From positions 86,278-150,277 of IMG/VR virus record IMGVR_UViG_3300044970_001522: 64,000 nucleotides of DNA. The stretch is one strand, 5' to 3'. Made by a program: the position numbers and the translations under genes. The notes beneath the pieces were generated by a model, which saw only the letters and a program-made list of their open reading frames with translations, made no database searches and had not been told where the DNA came from. This DNA is from a virus. Taxonomy: Duplodnaviria > Heunggongvirae > Uroviricota > Caudoviricetes. Below are positions 2,577-36,320 of this stretch, in pieces. Each line of letters begins with the position of its first letter. Positions within the stretch are counted from its first letter, which is position 1.

Positions 2577-2768
2577 ATGGAAGAAACTGACTACAAGACA
2601 GAGTATATGAGAATTTCAACCCTTGTCGGGTCGCAATTCCCAGAATGCGAAGTTACTACGCCAGATATGGTAATACTTTTGATACACGAAAACGACACGT
2701 TGCGTATGGCACTTAATTTACCCACGAGACGTGAGGTTCTTTCCAAACTTGACGAGTTTTACGAATGA
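2577..2768 (+). CDS. hypothetical protein
   Basis: 63-aa ORF filling the gap on the coding strand. Confidence 0.55.
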   Translation: MEETDYKTEYMRISTLVGSQFPECEVTTPDMVILLIHENDTLRMALNLPTRREVLSKLDEFYE

Positions 2769-2783
2769 TTTCCACACAACAAT

Positions 2784-3545
2784 ATGACCGATAAACTGCT
2801 AGATGGCCAGGACCCAGTGAAAGAAGTACGGAACTACACGTTTTCTAGAGACTACGATACTCTGTACGACTTGAGCATGAACCAGTCGGTAGTGTGTGAA
2901 GTTGATTTTCATACAATTCAGAGTGATGGCAGGAAACGAAAGGGCAGAGAAATCTGCTCGACTAAATACCACCCTTTCACGGGAAGTCACTGCGTAGGGG
3001 GCCGAGGAAAAGGTTACATCGACGCCGATAGCCTGGACGACTTTGTGAGCCAGTGTAGAACCTGCAACTTGATTTGGTTCGTTCCTGACCGCTGGGGGGA
3101 CTCCCACCTACAAGAGTCAGTCGGCCAGACCCGGCCAGACCTTGCCGAACAAACTTATAACACAATGACTCAGCACAATTCGATTGAAGTCCCCGACGAA
3201 CTAGTTCATAGTTGGTGGCCTAGCGAGGGGTATTATGAGCGAGATGGTGATCTAAACATCCTCGCCGACAAGGCCGCACAATGGGGCGCCGACCAGGAGC
3301 TTGCTGCTTGCTGCGACTGGTTGCGCCTCCAAGAAGATCCTCAGTTTAGTTCCGACGACGGGTGGGTGGGTAAAGACCAGGAACTTCGTGAAGCACGCAG
3401 GCCCAACGTACCTACACTTAATGAAATCGCCCTGCAATTCATGGGGACCATCGAGAAAGACGGACGGTACCTACCTGAGATTACAAGCACTATTGTAAGA
3501 GCTTTGGTTGAAGGAGGGGAGGCTCTAAAAGAGCTCAATGGCTGA
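2784..3545 (+). CDS. hypothetical two-domain protein
   Basis: 253-aa ORF; C-terminal half has a WGADQELAACCDWL...LREARRP motif typical of small cyanophage ORFs. Confidence 0.7.
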   Translation: MTDKLLDGQDPVKEVRNYTFSRDYDTLYDLSMNQSVVCEVDFHTIQSDGRKRKGREICSTKYHPFTGSHCVGGRGKGYIDADSLDDFVSQCRTCNLIWFVPDRWGDSHLQESVGQTRPDLAEQTYNTMTQHNSIEVPDELVHSWWPSEGYYERDGDLNILADKAAQWGADQELAACCDWLRLQEDPQFSSDDGWVGKDQELREARRPNVPTLNEIALQFMGTIEKDGRYLPEITSTIVRALVEGGEALKELNG

Positions 3546-3774
3546 TAGATTGTACAAACAGGGGTGCCCGTGCTTTTATTGTGTCAAGGAAAGGGCAAAC
3601 GCCACAGCGCAACCTTTGGTTCACCCTATGGCCGTTTGTCCAACTTGCGGCAACAAAAGGTGTCCAAAAGGAACTCACCACTCGTTCAACTGCAGCGGAA
3701 GCAACGAAGCAGGGCAGTTGGGAAGCCGCTACACCTTACCTGGCATTACACACACTGACCTTTCTCCAGCATGA
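3538..3774 (+). CDS. small Cys-rich (Zn-binding) protein
   Basis: CPCFYC and CPTCGNKRCPK motifs; overlaps both neighbours. Confidence 0.65.
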   Translation: MADRLYKQGCPCFYCVKERANATAQPLVHPMAVCPTCGNKRCPKGTHHSFNCSGSNEAGQLGSRYTLPGITHTDLSPA

Positions 3775-3980
3775 CGACGCAAGTACCCGTACCCTTTACC
3801 GAGCGGTACCCTGGACCGGAAGACTGTAGTACAAACGGGGAGTTTTGGGTGTTTTGCCCAGGAATCGGTTGTAGCGATTGTTGGACACTCATGCGGTACG
3901 ACAGCCAGAACTTAGAATCTCGAGAGAAATACGGTCTCACTCATTGGTTGCCATACAACTCAATACCCTGCCCTGTTTAA
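3771..3980 (+). CDS. small protein with THWLP motif (DUF551-like)
   Basis: YGLTHWLPY C-terminal motif. Confidence 0.55.
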   Translation: MTTQVPVPFTERYPGPEDCSTNGEFWVFCPGIGCSDCWTLMRYDSQNLESREKYGLTHWLPYNSIPCPV

Positions 3981-3981
3981 G

Positions 3982-4347
3982 ATGAACTTGCGTGACGCAC
4001 GAGAGAAAGCCTTGCAGATTTCTGCTGAAACTGAGCATGGCTTATTGAAGGATAGAGAAGCTGAGTGTAAGCTCTACAGAGCTGCTCCCGGTGAAACCTT
4101 TGACCCTGTAAGTGTTTCTGACCGTCTACCTAAACTTTCCGATTCTGACGCCGAAGAACTATGTTGGTGGTGGAGAACCGACGCCGACGGGTCAGCAGTT
4201 GAGGGTATGTGGGAAATGCTACAATTTGACTGGCCAGTTAGAAAATATAACCTCTCAGGGAGCGGTTACAACTACACACACTGGCTGCCACACTGGGCCA
4301 TTGTAAATCCTAATGCCTCCTTAGTTAAAGAACATGGCAAACAATAG
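3982..4347 (+). CDS. protein with THWLP motif (DUF551-like)
   Basis: PVSVSDRLP...CWWW...YTHWLPHWA. Confidence 0.6.
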   Translation: MNLRDAREKALQISAETEHGLLKDREAECKLYRAAPGETFDPVSVSDRLPKLSDSDAEELCWWWRTDADGSAVEGMWEMLQFDWPVRKYNLSGSGYNYTHWLPHWAIVNPNASLVKEHGKQ

Positions 4348-4540
4348 ACAATGCTCAACTTGCTTTTACTCGGTCTCAACTCCAGTTGTAGACCCTATAA
4401 TAGCCTCGCTTACTGATCCCAGTAACTACGGCTTAGGAGCGTGGCGAACTTCAACAAAATGCCACATTCAAGGTCCACCCAAAGAAGTTAACGCTGACAT
4501 AGATTGGTGCTTCCAGTGGAGATCCAGAGACCGCATATGA
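4334..4540 (+). CDS. small Cys-containing protein
   Basis: CSTCFY...CH...DWCFQW pattern. Confidence 0.55.
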   Translation: MANNRQCSTCFYSVSTPVVDPIIASLTDPSNYGLGAWRTSTKCHIQGPPKEVNADIDWCFQWRSRDRI

Positions 4541-4849
4541 AAAAAAAAGGCGACAAACTTTACCAGAAAAATCCCAAGCTATACTACCGGCATAGTTAAC
4601 CGTAGACCCCAATGCTCGCCCTACTTGCCGTAACTTACCTGCTTGTGGGCTTTGCAAGGCTCCTTTCCGCACTCCCAGACTACGATCTACCGGTTATCGG
4701 GCACAGGGTGAGAATTTTGGACGTTTGCGGCCATGTTTTACTCTGGCCCTGCCCAGCAACCGCAAAGTTTCTAAGGAAGCTACGCCGTTGACCCGCTGAT
4801 CCGGAACCTGGCTCCGCTCATTTAAACTTGAACACCACTAGACCCTAAG

Positions 4850-5233
4850 ATGAACGAAAAAACACCTCTACAGCAACTCCAAGAATGGCAAGAGCTTTGT
4901 GACCACTTTCGAACCTTGCACACGAAAGGTGTCGCTGCCCCCGAAAACTCACTGAGTGTTGGAGTTGAGGGGTACATAGATCCTCTTTCCAGGGAAACCA
5001 CACTAGAAGCAGGGTGGACCCTAAATGGAAAGAAATTCACACGATCTACAACTTTCTCAACCATTTTATCGGAGTACAGAAACGGGCGGTGTGAGGAGAG
5101 TGCAGAAGCCGTTTCAAGACTCGCCGGACTAATTGCTAAAGATGTCACAAGGGGGCTCGAAGAAGAAATGTACCGTCTTTTGCTGTCGTCTCCCAATTCA
5201 GTCCTACCTCGAAACTTTGCGCCACCGGAATAG
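4850..5233 (+). CDS. hypothetical protein
   Basis: 127-aa ORF, ATG start. Confidence 0.65.
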   Translation: MNEKTPLQQLQEWQELCDHFRTLHTKGVAAPENSLSVGVEGYIDPLSRETTLEAGWTLNGKKFTRSTTFSTILSEYRNGRCEESAEAVSRLAGLIAKDVTRGLEEEMYRLLLSSPNSVLPRNFAPPE

Positions 5234-5281
5234 TCCTGTGTCCTTCCCTGTGTAAAGTACGGTTGACCGTTTGCTTCGAGA

Positions 5282-5322
5282 CGGTTTCCCGCCTTTACTT
5301 CCCTGGTGAAAACCGGCATACT
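5282..5322 (+). promoter_or_regulatory. sigma70-type early promoter with upstream CGG-N4-CCG element
   Basis: CGGTTTCCCG, then TTTACT(5294)-17 nt-CATACT(5317). Confidence 0.6.
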
Positions 5323-5357
5323 TAGTAAAAGATGGCCTAACACGTGGGGGCGAAGCA

Positions 5358-5585
5358 ATGAGCAAAAGCTGTGGATCCTGTGCCTGCTACACCAAGTGGA
5401 AAAAAGATTCCCTTGTGGCAGAAAACGGCGGTAAAGGAGGCGAATTAGCCTCAGGACTGTGTGAGTTTCTCGACGCACGCACAAAGCCCGACTGGGGTCG
5501 CAGCTGCCCGCACTGGGTTGGTAAACGATACGACCGGAACACCTTGAAAAAGCAAACACTGAGCGAAATCAACGAGAATGATTAA
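5358..5585 (+). CDS. small Cys-rich protein
   Basis: CGSCACY...GLCEF...CPHW. Confidence 0.6.
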   Translation: MSKSCGSCACYTKWKKDSLVAENGGKGGELASGLCEFLDARTKPDWGRSCPHWVGKRYDRNTLKKQTLSEINEND

Positions 5586-6093
5586 CCGAACTTTGATAGC
5601 GAGAATCCAGAGCTACTACCCGAACTGGTTCCAGGACACGAATTGGAGTGACGAGGACGTTCTCGATGCCATTACCATAGCAAAGCGTGTTGAGTCCGGA
5701 GAAGAAAAAACATATTCCTTTGAGGAAGCAATGGAAGATCTCGAACTCACCGGGGAACTTGGGTTGGTGACCCGCACCGAGAGGGGATTTGAGGTCATTG
5801 ACTTTCAAGATCTACACAACAAGGAGTGCAGCCTGCAACAAAGCTCCCTTGCCGTTTATTGGGAGCCAGGGACGTCTGCGGTGTGGTTGGGCCAAGGGGA
5901 AGATAGAATGCACCTTGGGGAAGAACAGGTTCAGTCCCTGGTTACTGTTTTGCAAAGGTGGCTGGACACAGGTTCTTTCATTCCCTACCCTACTACAGAA
6001 GTATCACCCCTCTCAAAATTTGCTGGGATCCTTAAGAACATTTTTGGGCTTGCCTTAAGACCACTCAAATCACTTACAAATCGAAACCAATGA
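5578..6093 (+). CDS. fusion: RelB/CopG-type antitoxin C-terminal-like segment plus phage domain of unknown function
   Basis: DEDVLDAITIAKRVESGEEKTYSFEEAMEDLEL followed by TERGFEVIDFQD...CSLQQSSLA...VWLG...RMHL. Confidence 0.55.
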   Translation: MINRTLIARIQSYYPNWFQDTNWSDEDVLDAITIAKRVESGEEKTYSFEEAMEDLELTGELGLVTRTERGFEVIDFQDLHNKECSLQQSSLAVYWEPGTSAVWLGQGEDRMHLGEEQVQSLVTVLQRWLDTGSFIPYPTTEVSPLSKFAGILKNIFGLALRPLKSLTNRNQ

Positions 6094-27454: not shown

Positions 27455-28954
27455 TTGGCAAATAGGTTTAAGACAGCTCCGGTACCGAAGGGGGAGATCT
27501 CAAGTTATACGAGCGACCCTTATAACTTATCCAGTATTTACATGTTTGGGAGCTCTTCTCCCTTTACTGGATCCGGAAATAGCATCGTTCGACCAAGTGA
27601 CGACCTTCTCATCCAGAAGGGAGGGAACCGTGCGCTTTCCGTCTATCAGCGGCTTTTCTTTGACGAGCACGTACAAAGTTCGTTCTCAAAGTTAGTTCAA
27701 GAGGTTGTATCGAGACCGTGGTACGTTGAGGAATACAGCTCAAAGCCTGGCGATACTGCAGTAAGGGACTTCGTAGCAGAAATCCTCGAAGAACTACCCT
27801 TAGACGAGATATATAAGGGACTTGCTGAAGCCCTTATCGTGGGGTTTAGTGTTGGCGAAATAATGTGGAAGAAATCAAAACGCGGGGTAATACCCTTTGA
27901 CATAAGAATTAGAGACCAGCGCCGATTTGTTTTCCAAGAAGCGGAAGACTCACAAACGGGCTTCACAATGAGGTGCTTAACCTTTAATCGTATGTTTGAG
28001 GGGGTTGAGCTCCCTGCTCGAAAATTCGTCGTAAATCGCTACTGGACTCAGCACAACGGGGACCCATACGGAACTTCGCTAGGGCGAGTTCTGTATCCCT
28101 TAGTAAAGTTTCGGAGAAGAGCCCTAGAGTCCTACGTTCTTTACGGGGACCGGTATGCGACACCCACAGCTGTTGCGACCGCACCCCTAAGCGCGTCCTC
28201 TGCCGAAATTGACACGATCTATGACCACATCTCAAACTTATCTCAGGAAACTGCGCTAATTTTGCCGGATGGGTACAAGCTTGAGTTTGTCAACCCGAGC
28301 GGAACTCCGGATGTGTTTAAGGGACTGATTGACTATATCGACAAGGAAATTAGCCTCATACTTTGCGGGGAAAACGAGGCTGGGCAAGCTGAGTCTGGAT
28401 CCAGAGCTTCTTCACAGGTTGCAAACGTTGTTCGAGTTGTGAAGGCAGCGGAAATTTCCGAAGCGATCTCTCACACTTTGACTCGCACTCTGGTACGATG
28501 GATTGTAGACCTTAACTTCGGTGTAGACGTTGCAGCGCCAACCCTCACAAGGGAGTTTCGAATTGAGGAGTCTTCCCTCACTGCCACCGACCTGGGTTCC
28601 CTTATCGACAAGGGGTACAAACCGCGTAGGGAGTGGGTTGAGAGGCATTTTCGTATTGAGCTTGAAGACGAAGCTCCTGAGTTCACGACGAAAGAGGAAG
28701 AAGGGAATACCACCTATAGCCCTGACGAGGACGAGGACCTTTACGGATCTATTTTTGGTGCTGACGGGGAGTACCCCGAAGGAAGTCCGGAGGACGAGCC
28801 GGAGGGTGGCGACGAGCCAAAGCCGAAGGAAGAACCATCCGGTGAGCAAACCACGTACAACCCTGAAGAAGATGGAAACCTTTACGACTCAGTGTTCGGG
28901 AATGACTTAGAACCCACTGAAGAGGGCAAAAAGAAGGGTAAAAAACGTATATGA
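27455..28954 (+). CDS. portal protein, Mu gp29/DUF935 family
   Basis: ALIVGFSVGEIMW, NGDPYGTSLGR, YGDRYATP, IDYIDKEISLILCGE; acidic C-terminal tail; TTG start. Confidence 0.9.
   Translation: MANRFKTAPVPKGEISSYTSDPYNLSSIYMFGSSSPFTGSGNSIVRPSDDLLIQKGGNRALSVYQRLFFDEHVQSSFSKLVQEVVSRPWYVEEYSSKPGDTAVRDFVAEILEELPLDEIYKGLAEALIVGFSVGEIMWKKSKRGVIPFDIRIRDQRRFVFQEAEDSQTGFTMRCLTFNRMFEGVELPARKFVVNRYWTQHNGDPYGTSLGRVLYPLVKFRRRALESYVLYGDRYATPTAVATAPLSASSAEIDTIYDHISNLSQETALILPDGYKLEFVNPSGTPDVFKGLIDYIDKEISLILCGENEAGQAESGSRASSQVANVVRVVKAAEISEAISHTLTRTLVRWIVDLNFGVDVAAPTLTREFRIEESSLTATDLGSLIDKGYKPRREWVERHFRIELEDEAPEFTTKEEEGNTTYSPDEDEDLYGSIFGADGEYPEGSPEDEPEGGDEPKPKEEPSGEQTTYNPEEDGNLYDSVFGNDLEPTEEGKKKGKKRI
28708..28900 (+). 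repeat. duplicated peptide in portal C-terminus
   Basis: TTYSPDEDEDLYGSIFG and TTYNPEEDGNLYDSVFG. Confidence 0.75.
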
Positions 28955-31530
28955 GTACAACGAGTAGCAAAGTGTTTTCAAAACGTGTTCATGTTTTTAC
29001 GGCGGGACCCCAGGTTTCTGCTCAGGGCGTGGAAAGGAACTTCACACCTCAAGACCTTCAGCAAGTTGTTGATTCCTACGACCCCCAAACACATGAGGCA
29101 CCCCTTGTTATTGGTCATACTGGGGACAACGACAGTGTTCCTTCTTTTGGGTGGGTCAAAAAGTTGGTCAGAAGCGGAGAGAAGCTATACGCAGACGTTG
29201 ACTTCACTGACACTGCTAAAGATTTAGTGAAAAAAGGGCATTACCGCAAAGTCTCCATATCCTTCTACTCTCCGAACTCTCCAATTAACCCGCATGAGGG
29301 ACAGTGGAGCGTTCGGCACTTGGCACTTTTGGGAGCGTCGCCCCCTGCGGTTAAGGGCCTGGAGCCTTTCTCGTTCTCTGAGGAAGGTAACGGAGTGTTC
29401 AACTTCGCTTCAGCTCTATCTCCAGAAGACATCTTTGACGACGAGCTTGGTCCCACACTTCTTGTTGAGCGAAGCCCGTTAGAAATCCTAAAGGAAAAGC
29501 TTGAGGAAATTCGTGGAGACATGAGTTCTTCTCTTCAAGAGCTACAAGAAAACCAAGACGATCAGACTGAAACAGACGTCGATTCGACACAAACTACAAA
29601 TTCGGCGGATGAAAGTACCGCCCCCGAAAACCCTAACCAGCAATTTTCCGAAATGAAAAAGAAAATGGGGCGTGAAGGAGCTGAAGTCTCCGAATCCGCT
29701 CAAAGTCTAGCAAACATGGAAGACAAATTTCCAGAAGAGAAGTTCGACGAAGGAGTCTCTCGCAAAGTTGCGAAAGGGGCTCACGGCCACCACGTACAAG
29801 TTGTGGAAGAGGTTTTTGAAGAGGGCGATGAAGAACTCTCGGACGAGCACCGTGAGATTCCCGCTGCTTTCAAGAAAAATATCGCTAAGATGAAAGCTAA
29901 GCACAAAGCCCACGATGAGGACGGGGAAGATGATGAAGACGAACTTTCCGAGGAACACGGAGAAGTTCCTGCTGCTTTCAAGAAAAATATCGCTAAGATG
30001 AAGGCCAAGACAGCGAAGGTGGAAGAATCCGACGAGGAAGACTCTGAGGGCGACTACGCTGAGGTAGGGTTTAAGAAAACTGCGAACAGGCAGGCATCGT
30101 TTGGAAAACGTGCTGAGAAGGATCCAGGGGATCCAGCTGGTCGTTCTAAAACAGCACGGTCATCCGACGATAGCTACGGGGACCGTCAGTCGGTTGGACA
30201 AGGGGGTGAGGAAGACCGCGAAGGTTTGACTTCAGACGTGGCGCAAGACACGGACCGTTTAAACACTGCTAAGGACGGTGACCAGGAGCAAGACCGAGAA
30301 GAGCTGGCGAAGGCACTCGACGGTGAAGGGGACGAAGATTCCCGTTGGGCTGACCAACCTGAGGGTCGCCGCCGTTCAATGGAAGACGACCAGTACAACG
30401 ATGGTGAGTACGGACTTCCAGGAAGAAACAAGCCGGGAACCTCCGATGGAAACGACCCCCACGGTCGCGATGGCGGGCCAACTTCAGTTTCTGAGGACTC
30501 TGAGGAAGAGCCCGACACCGAGGACATTGCTGTGCCACTTCAGAGCACCAAGGGCAACAAAGTTTCTCGCGTTCTTCACCAAACCTCCGGACAAAAGAGG
30601 GCGTCTGTCAAAGGTAAGGAAATTGCGGATCACAGCGAAGAGTCCGACGGTGTTACACGAACTGCGAAAAAGGCAGGTGTTTCGGCGGGGAACGACCCCC
30701 ACGGTCGCGAAGACGGACCCACAAACTTCCCTGACCGCTCTGAGGAAGAGCCGGACGACCTCGACATTGCTGTCGACCTAGAAAGTGTCGTTGGTAGTCG
30801 CAAAGTTCGTGTGCTGCGTCAGCGATCGGGTGAAAAGCCTTCGATTGACCACGCCGAAGAAGACGATCTTGACATGGAAGAGTGTGGGACTTCCAGGAAA
30901 GTTTCTCGCAAGTTTGCAGAACGCGATCCAATGACTCGAACCGGAAAGGGCTCGACTTACGGGCAAAAGCGTCCCGTTATGGAAGAGGATGACGATGAGG
31001 AGATGTACGATGAGGACGACGATTTCTCTGAAACTGACGACTTTTGTGGAATGGGGTCAATGGGCCAGGCTAAGCCTATGGGTTATCCCACCCAAATGTT
31101 CGAAGAGTTCCAACGTGAGCTGGAAAATCTTAAGAACGAAAATTCTCGCCTGAGGAAAGAGTACCAGGAGCACCAAACCAACTCCCGTAAGCAACGCATC
31201 GCCGACTTTGTCGACAGCCTCTACACCGAAGGAAAGATGACTGACGGAGTAATTCCTCAGAGAGACCTTCAAAACTACTGCGAAGGTCTTGAGTTCGGTA
31301 CACTTGACTTCGCAGAAGGCGAAACACCAACAACCAAGTTGTTTGCGCTTCTTGAGCGTTTGCCCAACATGGTTCACTTCGGGGAAGTTGTCGCCGAGGG
31401 GCGTTTCAGCGACCCTGAAGATGACGAAGATCTAGACCCCCATTCTCGTGCAATGAAGATGGTTCAGGCCGGAGAGTGCGATTACGTTGAGGCAATCAAG
31501 CGTTCCATTCCTTGGGGAGGTCGGGGCTGA
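28951..31530 (+). CDS. Mu gpI-like prohead protease fused to a long acidic scaffold region
   Basis: HVFTAG, PLVIGH, FGWVKKL, YRKVSISFY, RHLALLGASPPAVKGL; C-terminal coiled coil. Confidence 0.88.
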   Translation: MSTTSSKVFSKRVHVFTAGPQVSAQGVERNFTPQDLQQVVDSYDPQTHEAPLVIGHTGDNDSVPSFGWVKKLVRSGEKLYADVDFTDTAKDLVKKGHYRKVSISFYSPNSPINPHEGQWSVRHLALLGASPPAVKGLEPFSFSEEGNGVFNFASALSPEDIFDDELGPTLLVERSPLEILKEKLEEIRGDMSSSLQELQENQDDQTETDVDSTQTTNSADESTAPENPNQQFSEMKKKMGREGAEVSESAQSLANMEDKFPEEKFDEGVSRKVAKGAHGHHVQVVEEVFEEGDEELSDEHREIPAAFKKNIAKMKAKHKAHDEDGEDDEDELSEEHGEVPAAFKKNIAKMKAKTAKVEESDEEDSEGDYAEVGFKKTANRQASFGKRAEKDPGDPAGRSKTARSSDDSYGDRQSVGQGGEEDREGLTSDVAQDTDRLNTAKDGDQEQDREELAKALDGEGDEDSRWADQPEGRRRSMEDDQYNDGEYGLPGRNKPGTSDGNDPHGRDGGPTSVSEDSEEEPDTEDIAVPLQSTKGNKVSRVLHQTSGQKRASVKGKEIADHSEESDGVTRTAKKAGVSAGNDPHGREDGPTNFPDRSEEEPDDLDIAVDLESVVGSRKVRVLRQRSGEKPSIDHAEEDDLDMEECGTSRKVSRKFAERDPMTRTGKGSTYGQKRPVMEEDDDEEMYDEDDDFSETDDFCGMGSMGQAKPMGYPTQMFEEFQRELENLKNENSRLRKEYQEHQTNSRKQRIADFVDSLYTEGKMTDGVIPQRDLQNYCEGLEFGTLDFAEGETPTTKLFALLERLPNMVHFGEVVAEGRFSDPEDDEDLDPHSRAMKMVQAGECDYVEAIKRSIPWGGRG
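29860..30008 (+). repeat. direct repeat in scaffold encoding PAAFKKNIAKMKAK twice
   Basis: gctgctttcaagaaaaatatcgctaagatgaa occurs twice. Confidence 0.9.
30436..30780 (+). repeat. duplicated scaffold peptide GNDPHGR..GPT....SEEEPD..DIAV
   Basis: aacgacccccacggtcgcga occurs near 30452 and 30691. Confidence 0.85.
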
Positions 31531-32270: not shown

Positions 32271-32394
32271 CTTTTAAACGAACCCACCATGGTTCAAACT
32301 AAGGTGAAGCAGGGTAAAACCTGAATAACTAAGCTAGGTGAAAAACAAGTCCTAGAGGAAACAACAAAACCAATAACCCTTTGAAAATATCAAA

Positions 32395-32868
32395 ATGTCT
32401 TTGAACATCGCACCAGTTTACGGTAAGCAATTCATTCGTTACGCGGAGACTTTCACCGCTGCTACTGACAACCAAGGTGGAACGGCTGGAGTCGTTGAAA
32501 TTCCTGAGTTTGCAGTTGTTGCTTACGCAACCTATGCCGGAGCAAACAAAGTTTGCGCCCCTGGCAACCTAACCGCGTTTGATGGGAAGATTGTAGGTGT
32601 GAACCAGGCCTACATTCCCACAGCCCTGTCTCAACCTCGCACCGCTCGTCAAGCTTCTGTGGCCACCAGTGGCTCCTTGCTTGTTGAAGTGAGTGCCAGC
32701 GCCGTGGCCCCCTTCGTACTCAACGCCCAGCTTTCAGTTGGTGCTGACGGCAAGGCGCTACCCACTGCGAATACCGGGACCAACGTCACTCTTGACGGTA
32801 CTATCCCGCTCATTCGTGAAATCGTGCGAATCGGCGGTCGCACTGTCTTGCTGGTTTCATTCGCCTGA
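32395..32868 (+). CDS. head decoration/cement protein (DUF2190-like)
   Basis: Small beta-rich protein directly before the major capsid gene; VATSGSLLVE...LSVGADGKA. Confidence 0.65.
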   Translation: MSLNIAPVYGKQFIRYAETFTAATDNQGGTAGVVEIPEFAVVAYATYAGANKVCAPGNLTAFDGKIVGVNQAYIPTALSQPRTARQASVATSGSLLVEVSASAVAPFVLNAQLSVGADGKALPTANTGTNVTLDGTIPLIREIVRIGGRTVLLVSFA

Positions 32869-32903
32869 GAAAAGCTGACGCATTTCGGTGCGTTTTCACT
32901 AAG

Positions 32904-32934
32904 AGCCTTCAACTTTCGAGTTGGGGGCTTTTTT
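32904..32934 (+). terminator. intrinsic terminator
   Basis: AGCCTTCAAC-TTTCGA-GTTGGGGGCT stem then T run. Confidence 0.7.
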
Positions 32935-33042
32935 CGTGAAAAAGAAGGGTATAACTACAGTGACCCCAAAGTTTTAGGACTCGCGGGTCGGATTGCTTCG
33001 GCAATCTTTGAAGTCAACTTTACACACAAGGAAACATCTATT

Positions 33043-35848
33043 ATGATGAATCATAAAGGTTCCACTCAGAGGTGACTCTGATTGAAAATCGGGTGAATTG
33101 CTGGGACACCTTAGTTTTGCTTTTGCAAAACAGGCAATCAGCAGCCAAGGCCCCTAGGGATAGGGGCAAGGTTCAACGACTAGGATAAGTAATCTAGAAC
33201 AGAAGAAAGTCCCAAGAGCGCCCGACTCTTTGCTCAGGCAAAGATGATGATATAGTCTGAACTTTACAGAAATGTAGAGAAGTAAAGGATAAAGAGCCTT
33301 TACGATAACAAGTTGCTACAACAGACCTATGCAGGGGTCGATCCCATTTTTTAGAGTGGCTTTGTTTTAACAAAGAAAATCCGGTGAATTGCTGGGACAC
33401 CTTAGTTTTGCTTTTGCAAAATAGGCAATCAGCAGCCAAGTTTACTTAGGGTCTTTACTAGCTATAGTAGAGTTAGGTAAAAAGGTTCAACGACTAGAAG
33501 ATGACTGACCCAAGAATAACTCTTCCACGAGCGCCGGGACTCACTAGTTACAGACAACTAAACAGATACTTTTTCTTCTTAGAAAAATTCGGTTCCCTCG
33601 AAAAGTTTAAATGCTGTCACGAACACCACATCCACCCAACTAAAATGGGAGGAAGTGATGCCAAAGTGAACTTAATTTACCTTACACCCAGGGCCCATTA
33701 CATCGCCCATCAGCTCCTCTTTAGAGCATTTACGGGAAACCAACAAGCCCAACGGGCTGCTTGGCTTATGTCCCACACGATTGACGAAGCTTTCGTCAAT
33801 TCTAGGGTGTATGAGTTTCTAAAAAATAACTACATTTTTTCTGAAGAGACCCGTAATAAACTTTCTGAAGCAGGTAGGAATAGGAAACTTAGTTTCGAGT
33901 CCAGAGAAAAAATCTCTAACTCAAACAAAGAAACCTACAGAAACACCTCTAAAGAAGTTCTACTAGAGAGAATTGAAAGGATGAGGGAGACTAAGAGAGG
34001 TACCCCGTGGAATGAGAGTCATAGAAACTCTATCCCCCCTTCTCTTCCTAGGGGGAGAGATCACTGGAGACTAAAAGATAGTCCATTATGGGGTGTATCC
34101 GATGAAATACTCAAAGTATGGCTAGAGAATGGTAAACCATCTTATGTTATGCTTTGTAGATTGTTAGGAATCCCCAAAACTAAATCTGTTATGTCTGTAA
34201 TAAAGAGTATGATATAGTCTGAACTCTTTGGAAACAAGGAGAAGTAGAGGATAAAGAGCCTTTACGATAACAAATGTCTTACAACCCTTGCACAAGGTTT
34301 TATGCTTCCGTCAACAAATATTGCGAATTTTATCGCACCGGTTGTTGACACTCCTACCAGAGCTGGGAGAATTCTCAGATTTGGGAAGGAACAGTTTGCT
34401 ATAAACGATTTCCGTCGTGCTTACGGAACTAACATCCCATACGTCCAAAGCCGCTACGACTCTGAGCCTTATGCTCTAGAGCAGGAAGTGGTCGCCTGGG
34501 AATTGCCTGAAGAGGTTGAATCAATAGCCTCCATCAGTTGAGAAACTGAAAGAAAAACTGGGTGAATTGCTGGGAAGCCTACGGCTTCAAACGAGAGTTT
34601 GAAACTATGGTAATCAGCAGCGAAGCGTTTTCGGGAGAAAACGAACGTTCAACGACTAACAGCATACCACTAGAACAGTGATGAAGCTGACAAGAGCGCC
34701 TAGCACCCTAACAAGGGTGAAGATATAGTCTGAACTTTCTGGAAACAGAAAGAAGTAAGGGATAAAGAGCCTTTACGATAACAGTATTGAATTGAAAACG
34801 CTGGCGAGGGTTGTTTGGCTCTTGCTGTGGCAGCTTAACCACAAATTAACTGGGTGAATTGCTGGGATCCCTGAATTTCCATTAAAGAAACAGGCAATCA
34901 GCAGCCAAGTTTACTACGTCGAGAAATCATTATGATTTCTGTGGTGAAAAGGTTCAACGACTAGACGATGAGTTTCGACAACAATAACTCGTCCACGAGC
35001 GCCCAGCCCTTTGCTTAGCAAAGGTGAAGATATAGTCTGAACTTTCTGGAAACAGAAAGAAGTAAAGGATAAAGAGCCTTTACGATAACAATTTGCCTGC
35101 ACAAGTAGATCTTCGCGCAATCGAAACCAGGAATGCAATGTCCAGATTGATGAACAGCTACGAGTACACCGTTGCTCAAGCTGTTTCCGTCACCGCGACT
35201 TACAACCCTTACGAGCCCTATAACGGAACCGCAGGTTCCCAGACCGGACTCGGTTTCACAACCTGGACAAACTTCAAGACAGCTTACGGCTCCGTTGCTG
35301 GAGACGCCGCCTGGTCTGGTGCTACTTCTAACCCAATTGAAGACATTCTAACCCTCAAGCGTGCAGTCGCCAACCAAATCGGTATCCGTCCAAACTCCGC
35401 AGTCGTCGGTTCTTCCGTGTTTGACCTCTTGCTGACCAACGAGAAGATCCTTGATCGTACCAAGTACACATCTGCAGACAGCGTCGACACTGACGTCATT
35501 GCTCGCTACTTCGGTCTTGAGCGTGGCCTACGTGTTGCCGAAGGTCGTTACTTAGCGCAAGATGGAACCCTACAGCCGGTATTCCCAGCTAACGGTATCC
35601 TTCTGTTCTACAGCCCTAACGGTCCTTCTGATTCCATCATGCCTGCTGGTGGTGCGAATGCTGCGACTCCTGCCTTCTCTTACACATATCAGCTCACAGG
35701 CACCCCCGCCGTCCGTCCCGAATACTACATTCGTGAACGTCGCGTTGTGCGTGCTGAAATCACAATTGAACGTGTGGTTAACCTGGTTGGCCTCGGCGCA
35801 ACTGGTCTTATCGGTTCTGGCGCTATGATCACCAACATCCTATCCTGA
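33043..35848 (+). CDS. major capsid protein, spliced: join(33043-33051,33316-33347,34277-34516,34790-34811,35096-35848), 351 aa
   Basis: Joined exons total 1056 nt with no internal stop: MMNLQQTYAGVDPILTTLAQGFMLPSTNIANFIAPVVDTPTRAGRILRFGKEQF...ELPEEVIENAGEGPAQVDLRAIETRN...; Mu-like/cyanobacterial prophage capsid signature and canonical position. Confidence 0.88.
33052..33315 (+). ncRNA. group I intron 1 (264 nt, IA-like)
   Basis: 5' exon ends in U, with GAAU/GUUC P1; GAATTGCTGGGA, AATCAGCAGCC, TTCAACGACTAG, GATATAGTC core; P3 CGGGTG/CGCCCG; terminal G. Confidence 0.9.
33348..34276 (+). mobile_element. group I intron 2 (929 nt) with homing endonuclease in the P8 loop
   Basis: P1 CCAU/GUGG, same core motifs, P3 CCGGTG/CGCCGG, terminal G at 34276. 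Confidence 0.92.
33501..34217 (+). CDS. HNH homing endonuclease with NUMOD3-like DNA-binding repeats
   Basis: HEHHIHPTKMGGSDAKVNLIYLTPRAHYIAHQLL; SEETRNKLSEA / SFESREKISNS repeats; AT-rich. Confidence 0.9.
   Translation: MTDPRITLPRAPGLTSYRQLNRYFFFLEKFGSLEKFKCCHEHHIHPTKMGGSDAKVNLIYLTPRAHYIAHQLLFRAFTGNQQAQRAAWLMSHTIDEAFVNSRVYEFLKNNYIFSEETRNKLSEAGRNRKLSFESREKISNSNKETYRNTSKEVLLERIERMRETKRGTPWNESHRNSIPPSLPRGRDHWRLKDSPLWGVSDEILKVWLENGKPSYVMLCRLLGIPKTKSVMSVIKSMI
34517..34789 (+). ncRNA. group I intron 3 (273 nt)
   Basis: P1 GAGGU/GCCUC, P3 CTGGGTG/CGCCTAG, P8 CACCCT-AACA-AGGGTG, AAGATATAGTC, terminal G. Confidence 0.92.
34812..35095 (+). ncRNA. group I intron 4 (284 nt)
   Basis: P1 GAGGGU/GCUCUU, P3 CTGGGTG/CGCCCAG, P8 CCTTTGC-TTA-GCAAAGG, AAGATATAGTC, terminal G. 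Confidence 0.92.
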
Positions 35849-35876: not shown

Positions 35877-36320
35877 ATGGCTATTCTCAGACCGATTACA
35901 AAGTCTCAGTACGAAGTTAGCTTCGTAGCTCCTGACGGACCCACACTAATCGCCACGTTTACAAAATTCAGCGGAATCAAGGATTCCTCAAGTAGCAGTG
36001 ACTACGCCAATGGTACTGGTAACCGTATTTACAAAGTTGTAGGCCCCAAAAAGGTAGACAACATCTCCCTTTCTGCTCCGTACGATCCCACGATCTTCAA
36101 GCAGTTGGAAATTTACTGGTTGCAGTATAATTGCAGAGAAATCACAGTTACAGTCACTCCGAAAGACTGTGTTGGAAACGGATCAGCCCCTGCTGGCGGC
36201 CAATACACTTGCTACGGATGTCAGTTCATGTCTCTTAATACCGCCGATGTTGACCGTGAAAGCGGCAATGTTCAGGAAATTGAGATTCAACTAACCGTGA
36301 ACTCTTGGGACCGAACCTGA
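35877..36320 (+). CDS. tail tube protein (T4 gp19-like fold)
   Basis: FTKFSGI...NISLSAPYD...ADVDRESGNVQEIEIQLTV. Confidence 0.75.
   Translation: MAILRPITKSQYEVSFVAPDGPTLIATFTKFSGIKDSSSSSDYANGTGNRIYKVVGPKKVDNISLSAPYDPTIFKQLEIYWLQYNCREITVTVTPKDCVGNGSAPAGGQYTCYGCQFMSLNTADVDRESGNVQEIEIQLTVNSWDRT

Follow-up and report, generated by a model that had tools for sequence, protein, structure and literature searches.

How does a phage build its head when the gene for its major capsid protein (MCP) is cut into five pieces? This question is raised by a locus in a 64,000-nt stretch of viral DNA, hereafter called the window, that corresponds to bases 86278-150277 of the 189.9-kb linear IMG/VR record IMGVR_UViG_3300044970_001522 (G000; estimated completeness 67%). 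The original prediction, made from the letters of the sequence without database searches, held that four group I introns split the major capsid gene of this virus. Our analysis indicates that this is very probably right, i.e. that a single capsid gene is interrupted by four canonical IA-type group I introns, self-splicing and mobile, and that its exons are ligated to encode a 351-aa protein. Since a near relative (G001, the record of locus L017) reaches 277 kb at 98% completeness, the source virus is a jumbo phage of about 280 kb, uncultured and of freshwater origin. It is probably a cyanophage, with freshwater picocyanobacteria as the leading candidate hosts, and a literature search did not find any description of this freshwater lineage. 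A scan of IMG/VR gave 296 relatives, and the intron survey covers the best 80 of them.

Excision of the four introns (Table 1) leaves 9 + 32 + 240 + 22 + 753 = 1056 nt that form an open frame of 351 aa, as had been proposed. The two junctions said to split codons, AT-T and GT-A, lie after nt 41 and 281 of the coding sequence (CDS) and regain the frame. The same five exon blocks were recovered by an independent spliced-alignment script. Furthermore, the alignment to intron-less homologues that had been suggested as a check was run and is gapless across MMN-LQQ, DPI-LTT, EEV-IEN and GEG-PAQ. For instance, Synechococcus phage S-CBWM1 has an uninterrupted major head protein of 341 aa (L001:3492-4517) that matches without a gap over all four junctions, its counterparts being MMNLNE, EPILTT, EEVIQN and GEGPAQ. 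The MMNL start is found in S-CBWM1 and also in 56 uninterrupted relatives. These 56 (out of the 80 best relatives) carry a full-length gene of 350/351 aa that is colinear with the spliced product. In seven uninterrupted relatives, the first 130 residues are those of the spliced product bar single substitutions, and 113 of the first 120 columns are invariant in an alignment of 57 genes. The intron boundaries are thus fixed by comparison with intron-less homologues. As had been noted, the list of open reading frames (ORFs) shows only a TTG-started fragment of 251 aa (35093-35848), so that gene callers miss the capsid gene. Marker-gene surveys of freshwater phages therefore require annotation that takes introns into account.

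The predicted spliced product has the features of a full-length phage MCP. It matches Pfam Phage_cap_E (PF03864; 37.8 bits for a cut-off of 22.9; E 1.5e-9) and phrog_1005 'major head protein' (E 5.3e-31), and it shares 61.6% identity with the major head protein of S-CBWM1 and 36% with the capsid proteins of the S-TIM5 group. For the uninterrupted capsid protein of L015, single-sequence AlphaFold2 gave a model with a mean predicted local distance difference test (pLDDT) score of 30, which was unusable for recognizing an HK97-like fold or for mapping the insertion sites. Only one capsid gene was found, both in G000 and in the 98%-complete G001. Therefore, virion production must depend on four splicing events, which supports what had been claimed for the main virion protein. 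The most abundant virion protein of a jumbo phage relies on four ribozyme reactions and on exons as short as 9, 22 and 32 nt. Scans for promoter-like and terminator-like sites gave numbers that were not above the shuffled expectation (6 vs 4.3 and 8 vs 4.0, respectively).

Each of the four elements is a genuine group I intron. The proposed Infernal/Rfam check was run as a covariance-model search (cmscan), and RF00028 (group I catalytic intron; gathering score 50 bits) matched each of them above gathering on the + strand, at 33038-33279 (91.0 bits), 33338-33547 (50.7), 34507-34752 (107.2) and 34784-35059 (91.2). Apart from those four, no match in the 64-kb window reached a gathering score. Intron 2 scores low because an ORF splits its ribozyme: the match covers the 5' half of the intron, and the 3' half (P8-P9) lies behind the ORF, at 34037-34241 (32.8 bits). 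The predicted elements of the catalytic core were also recovered. The cmscan alignments pair P3 to P9, all four introns end in G with a T preceding each of them, and an insert of 32-35 nt separates P7 from P3' in all four. In the 53 introns examined, the motifs of P7 (CAACGACTA), P3' (GAGCGCC) and P7' (GATATAGTC) occur without exception in the canonical order. Moreover, nearly all introns have in common a 3'-terminal hairpin with a constant ATAAAGAG loop, the stem of which covaries, and the tail GATAACA. The cores of the window introns share 79-85% identity, over conserved blocks, with introns of Streptococcus thermophilus, Staphylococcus, Bacillus and Clostridium phages.

The U-G P1 helices that had been described are also present: P1 helices ending in a U.G pair have 4, 4, 5 and 10 bp in introns 1 to 4, i.e. 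GAAU/GUUC, CCAU/GUGG, GAGGU/GCCUC and UGGCGAGGGU/GCUCUUGCUG, and intron 3 has a P10 of 5 bp (AUUGA/UCAAU). Among relatives, exon and guide covary at site 281 (sites being numbered by the last CDS nt before the intron), with GAGGT/GCCTC vs GAAGT/GCTTC, and two different P1 helices of 9-10 bp are found at site 303. P10 varies on both sides at sites 93 and 281 (ATTGA/TCAAT vs ATCGA/TCGAT). The insert between P7 and P3' folds as two stacked helices in which 86.7% of the cells are paired, with compensatory changes in 5 of 9 pairs and 0 in slid controls. These values come from explicit pair counting in a gap-free alignment of five inserts of equal length; with inserts of mixed length, MAFFT followed by RNAalifold gave a faulty alignment and no predicted pairing, so the gap-free alignment was used instead. 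Such a P7.1/P7.2-type insert places the introns in subgroup IA, in keeping with the IA-like insert that had been recognized.

With this anatomy, each intron would leave the pre-mRNA by two-step transesterification initiated by guanosine. P1 with its U.G wobble would set the 5' splice site, the terminal G would set the 3' site and P10 would align the next exon, and ligation of the five exons would yield the mRNA of the 351-aa protein. When reading in from the upstream exon, in-frame stops are met at nt 22, 5, 23 and 25 of introns 1 to 4. Such early stops are usual in phage introns; here, they would halt ribosomes 5-25 nt into each intron, ahead of the catalytic cores. At the 5' end of the gene, a segment of 35 nt (33028-33062) contains the ribosome-binding site and the start codon together with the two strands of the P1 of intron 1, and therefore initiating ribosomes and P1 folding may interfere.

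Evidence for splicing in RNA was sought in the assembled contigs of three metatranscriptomes, with exon 3 and junctions 2-4 outside their coverage. In metatranscriptome X16, a contig of 167 nt joins position 33051 exactly to 33316 and continues through exon 2 into intron 2, i.e. intron 1 has been removed and intron 2 is still present. A contig of metatranscriptome X15 links exon 1 with the second exon of an L014-type sister strain. In DNA run X1, the introns are in place and such joints are absent. Some other joints (33111>33423, 34611>34896 and a back-joint at 33499) belong to sister-strain contigs of related mosaic introns and do not result from splicing, and the contrast in contig depth between exon 5 and intron 2 is unusable as a measure of expression. 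Since the X16 joint has 28 nt on its shorter side and junctions 2-4 are outside the coverage, in vivo splicing is weakly shown for intron 1, and we infer it for introns 2-4.

Several points weigh against four splicing introns. The phage is known from a metagenomic contig. The 4-bp P1 helices of introns 1 and 2 are not above chance, as 45% of mismatched exon/intron pairings reach that length. The RNA contigs bear on junction 1 only, metatranscriptome libraries can contain DNA, and a DNA variant devoid of intron 1 could account for the short joint seen in the assembled contigs of X16. Given the source of the sequence, the locus might also be dead or chimeric, with introns that no longer splice in a defective phage or with strains stitched together by the assembler. 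Near-identical blocks in introns can indeed mislead assemblers, and in DNA run X1 the Logan contigs are broken at such repeats. However, the same four introns are found in the same order in the L016 and L017 assemblies at 99.9% identity. Furthermore, the stretch is present in at least 14 lake-water DNA metagenomes from 2016 to 2024, in which 71-97% of its words are found; it also occurs in 6 lake metatranscriptomes. Its exons are intact, its protein is identical to that of relatives, the cores, P1 and P10 are conserved with compensatory changes and the gene is the only capsid gene found. A dead or chimeric locus is thus extremely improbable. Functional introns in a working capsid gene remain the preferred explanation, on the strength of the ribozyme matches, the boundaries and restored frame, the covariation in P1, P10 and the insert, the presence/absence polymorphism among relatives and one exact RNA junction.

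Table 1. Features of the major capsid locus (positions in the window)
Feature	Position	Strand	Description
Major capsid gene	33043-35848	+	Five exons, four introns
Shine-Dalgarno-like AAGGA	33028..33032	+	10 nt 5' of the ATG; read directly from the sequence
Exon 1	33043..33051	+	9 nt, ATGATGAAT, MMN
Intron 1	33052..33315	+	264 nt, ORF-less, after CDS nt 9, phase 0; RF00028 91.0 bits
Exon 2	33316..33347	+	32-nt micro-exon
Intron 2	33348..34276	+	929 nt, after CDS nt 41, phase 2; ORF in P8 splits the ribozyme
Putative HNH-type homing endonuclease	33501..34217	+	238 aa, in intron 2
Exon 3	34277..34516	+	240 nt; tblastn with S-CBWM1 MCP residues 14-94: 78% identity, E 5e-40
Intron 3	34517..34789	+	273 nt, ORF-less, after CDS nt 281, phase 2; RF00028 107.2 bits
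Exon 4	34790..34811	+	22-nt micro-exon
Intron 4	34812..35095	+	284 nt, after CDS nt 303, phase 0; RF00028 91.2 bits
Exon 5	35096..35848	+	753 nt including stop; predicted C-terminal 250 aa of the capsid protein

Group I introns interrupt this capsid gene in 16 of the 80 closest loci, with 0-11 introns per gene and 46 Rfam matches at or above gathering in the 14 loci scanned. They occupy 13 insertion sites (after CDS nt 9, 36, 41, 75, 93, 150, 160, 192, 273, 281, 303, 318 and 356), all within the first 356 nt, i.e. the nearly invariant first third of the gene. The window has introns at sites 9, 41, 281 and 303. L016 and L017 carry the same four plus one at site 356, and L014 has introns at sites 9, 36, 75, 93 and 318. 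The extreme is L049 (IMGVR_UViG_3300027763_000031, 2671-5999) with eleven introns, exons down to 8, 10 and 15 nt and a spliced frame of 351 aa that is still open; part of this allele may result from chimeric assembly at short exons that are shared. A 1-kb gene with at least 13 insertion sites and as many as 11 introns would, to our knowledge, bear the densest load reported for any phage gene. Relatives with an uninterrupted gene are more distant (nucleotide identity of about 79% in exon 5), and the closest relatives are all intron-bearing with differing sets. For instance, L010, which is 98.9% identical to the window in exon 5, has no intron at sites 281 and 303. In whole records, group I matches are almost confined to the capsid gene.

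Some details of this survey deserve mention. The spliced-alignment script was 1-3 nt off at sites 75 and 356, where exon bases differ, and these boundaries were corrected by the rule of a T before the intron and a G at its end, together with translation. An apparent intron of 1157 nt at site 93 of L009 was discarded because its 5' end was spurious. In L049, the intron at site 93 (3292-3568) ends in A and not in G and does not have the 3' hairpin and the GATAACA tail that the other introns share; perhaps it is defective, or else its 3' splice site is unusual. In the sample, no gene has introns at both site 36 and site 41. At sites 36 and 318, intron-bearing alleles (L010/L012/L014) read GTGGAT just before the insertion point, and the window reads GTCGAT (33316-33347) and GTAGAT (35096-35110), respectively. 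These differences are synonymous and concern bases that form P1; they could be co-conversion tracts, or target-site variants that make the window allele a poor target. The sole group I matches elsewhere in related records are at G003:C1:55191-55419 (L008 record, 51.9 bits) and at G001:C1:248642-248804 (277-kb record, weak, 30.9 bits).

The distribution of the introns bears on what they do for the phage. They could constitute a regulatory timer or switch that delays or gates capsid synthesis: P1 of intron 1 is within 20 nt of the start codon, the full-length protein requires four splicing events and, since exon 1 has three codons only, translation initiation and P1 formation could compete. However, in 56 related phages the same protein is made from a gene without introns. 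Moreover, the intron sets differ among close relatives, whereas a built-in regulator is expected to be conserved in place, so that a regulatory role seems very unlikely. The presence of 0-11 introns at 13 sites across the lineage argues instead for selfish mobile elements over a designed requirement.

Intron 2 illustrates how such an element could move, as its ORF encodes a putative homing endonuclease of the HNH/NUMOD3 family. The ORF matches phrog_655 'homing endonuclease' (E 6.6e-28), phrog_12434 'HNH endonuclease' (E 1.4e-5) and Pfam NUMOD3 (E 2e-5), and includes a His...Asn...His stretch (CCHEHHIHP...VNL...AHYIAH). At E 0.01, no Pfam HNH domain was found in it, and a phmmer search against all chains of the Protein Data Bank (PDB) gave no match at E <= 1. 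A likeness of this protein to endonucleases of the I-HmuI / I-TwoI type is a lead that the PDB sequence search does not support. The protein is not assigned to the I-HmuI family because a relative of solved structure is undetectable by sequence. The ORF is tightly embedded in the ribozyme: its start codon is inside the P7.1-type insert, P3' encodes its first residues (…PRAPG) and its stop codon TAG is inside the conserved P7' motif GAUAUAGUC (GATATAGTC of P7'). HNH endonuclease genes of one family are found in introns at sites 9, 41, 93, 281 and 303 of different phages, and the paralogues at sites 9, 93, 281 and 303 of relatives show 27-45% identity between sites.

Introns 1, 3 and 4 are ORF-less versions of elements that, in related phages, still harbor paralogous HNH endonucleases. 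The 867-nt endonuclease-bearing intron of L016/L017 shares 99% identity with nt 1-195 of intron 4 and 100% with its nt 216-284; in intron 4, a 20-nt P8 hairpin stands in place of the 603-nt ORF body. Intron 4 is thus an ORF-deleted derivative that retains the first 13 codons of the lost endonuclease gene. Likewise, endonuclease-bearing versions of 895-899 nt occupy the site of intron 1 in relatives, and, conversely, an ORF-less 263-nt version occupies that of intron 2 in L049. The introns are also mosaics, since introns 1 and 2 have a common 66-nt block with 97% identity. For this reason, the maximum-likelihood tree of 35 unique intron cores, which grouped by site only in part, was considered unreliable, and pairwise block identities were used instead. 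Furthermore, the site-9 intron of the window is 90.6% identical to the site-93 intron of L014 over nt 7-262. Both sites read GAAT-C, and the differing bases are the first six of the intron, which form P10; such likeness is best read as an ectopic move. Finally, window 32305-35006 is 99.9% identical to L017 with flanks at 95.4-95.9%, as would be left by a recent transfer of an intron-laden block. Judging from these comparisons, the versions with and without endonuclease, the intron found at two sites and the 99.9% block point to active mobility. The introns are best explained as selfish elements, the spread of which would have involved homing, recombination among copies and, at least once, a jump to another site with an identical short P1 target.

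The first 356 nt of the gene might even be an active arena of group I intron proliferation, with retargeting to new sites on the basis of a shared P1 match of 4-6 nt (from site 9 to 93, and possibly 36 and 318) and with diverged HNH endonucleases that maybe serve as weapons between strains; we put this forward as a tentative proposal with the odds against it. The part played by weapons adds to the selfish-element explanation: the HNH endonucleases would cut the intron-less capsid alleles of co-infecting phages, and the many sites would reflect an arms race between strains. An intron endonuclease of the jumbo phage PhiPA3 has been shown to impair a co-infecting competitor (PMC11620839). Here, diverged paralogous HNH endonucleases occur at five different sites, intron-plus and intron-minus alleles co-occur in the same metagenomes (L013 with L031, L026 with L080) and the 99.9% identical block within flanks at about 95.5% is what a recent sweep would leave. 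However, all this evidence is equally expected from plain homing. Moreover, the endonuclease is gone from three of the four window introns, an outcome that the neutral gain-loss cycle of selfish homing elements would predict. We therefore regard the use of introns as weapons as unlikely, and selfish mobile introns remain the preferred explanation.

The surroundings of the capsid gene provide further observations. L016 and L017 carry an extra gene of 140 aa (L017:2177-2626) that is missing from the window at 32271-32305. Its N-terminus (MAILKPVVESQ) resembles that of a tail-tube-like ORF located at 35877-36320 (MAILRPITKSQ), so that the two may be paralogous. An ORF of 859 aa (28951-31530) that lies upstream of the capsid module has a very acidic low-complexity middle and internal repeats, …PAAFKKNIAKMKAK… and …GNDPHGR.GGPT…, each found twice. 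It is possibly a scaffold or prohead-protease fusion.

Taken together, this 1-kb gene offers a rare natural series with 0-11 introns, forms with and without endonuclease, one intron at two sites and a block that seems recently transferred. Such a series opens to study how introns reach new sites, the gain-loss cycle of homing and the place of intron endonucleases in competition between phages. If the gene is indeed a proliferation arena that includes weapons, it would provide a natural system to measure directly ectopic intron transposition and intron-mediated phage competition.

The original prediction doubted that four introns in a phage major capsid gene had a precedent. This doubt was overstated, since the MCP gene of a crAss-like Zeta-group phage (cMAG OLRF01000054) is broken up by four insertions, which leave five fragments (Yutin et al. 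2021, PMC7886860). The phages of the crAss-like Zeta group are gut phages of Bacteroidetes, and these insertions were recognized through endonuclease domains and not by ribozyme models. In contrast, four ribozymes are identified here, three of them ORF-less, with exons down to 9 nt and 13 sites in 356 nt. Cluster J mycobacteriophages are reported to harbor a group I intron within the capsid gene, and its splicing is required for the capsid protein (Pope et al. 2013, PMC3706429). In that case, there is one intron per gene and splicing was shown experimentally, whereas the present gene has four. In Jug jumbo phages of the gut, a genome carries 18.5 group I introns on average, and their splicing has been observed in metatranscriptomes; like the phage described here, they are jumbo phages whose essential genes carry many group I introns and HNH endonucleases (PMC12880540). 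However, the Jug introns are dispersed over the genome (terL, nrdD, polymerase genes), whereas nearly all the introns are here in one gene.

Other similarities concern the class of intron. Gene orf142 of Staphylococcus phage Twort reportedly contains three group I introns. The present locus is Twort-like in that several related IA-type introns lie in one phage gene, but it differs from Twort by having four introns, located in the capsid gene of a freshwater jumbo phage, and an intron set that is strongly polymorphic among relatives. The IA introns of td, nrdB and nrdD of T4 and those of SPO1-type phages encode homing endonucleases by ORFs in peripheral loops, have early in-frame stops and home into intron-less alleles. 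They belong to the same ribozyme class, but there is one intron per gene in these phages, and here the endonuclease ORF begins and ends inside core elements. In fungal mitochondria, many mobile group I introns have likewise accumulated in one conserved gene, cox1, and each may be present or absent. That system is organellar and non-viral, with much longer exons and introns. Hence, compared with these systems, the mechanism is not new, and the interest of this capsid gene is its intron density and the series of alleles that it offers at the population level.

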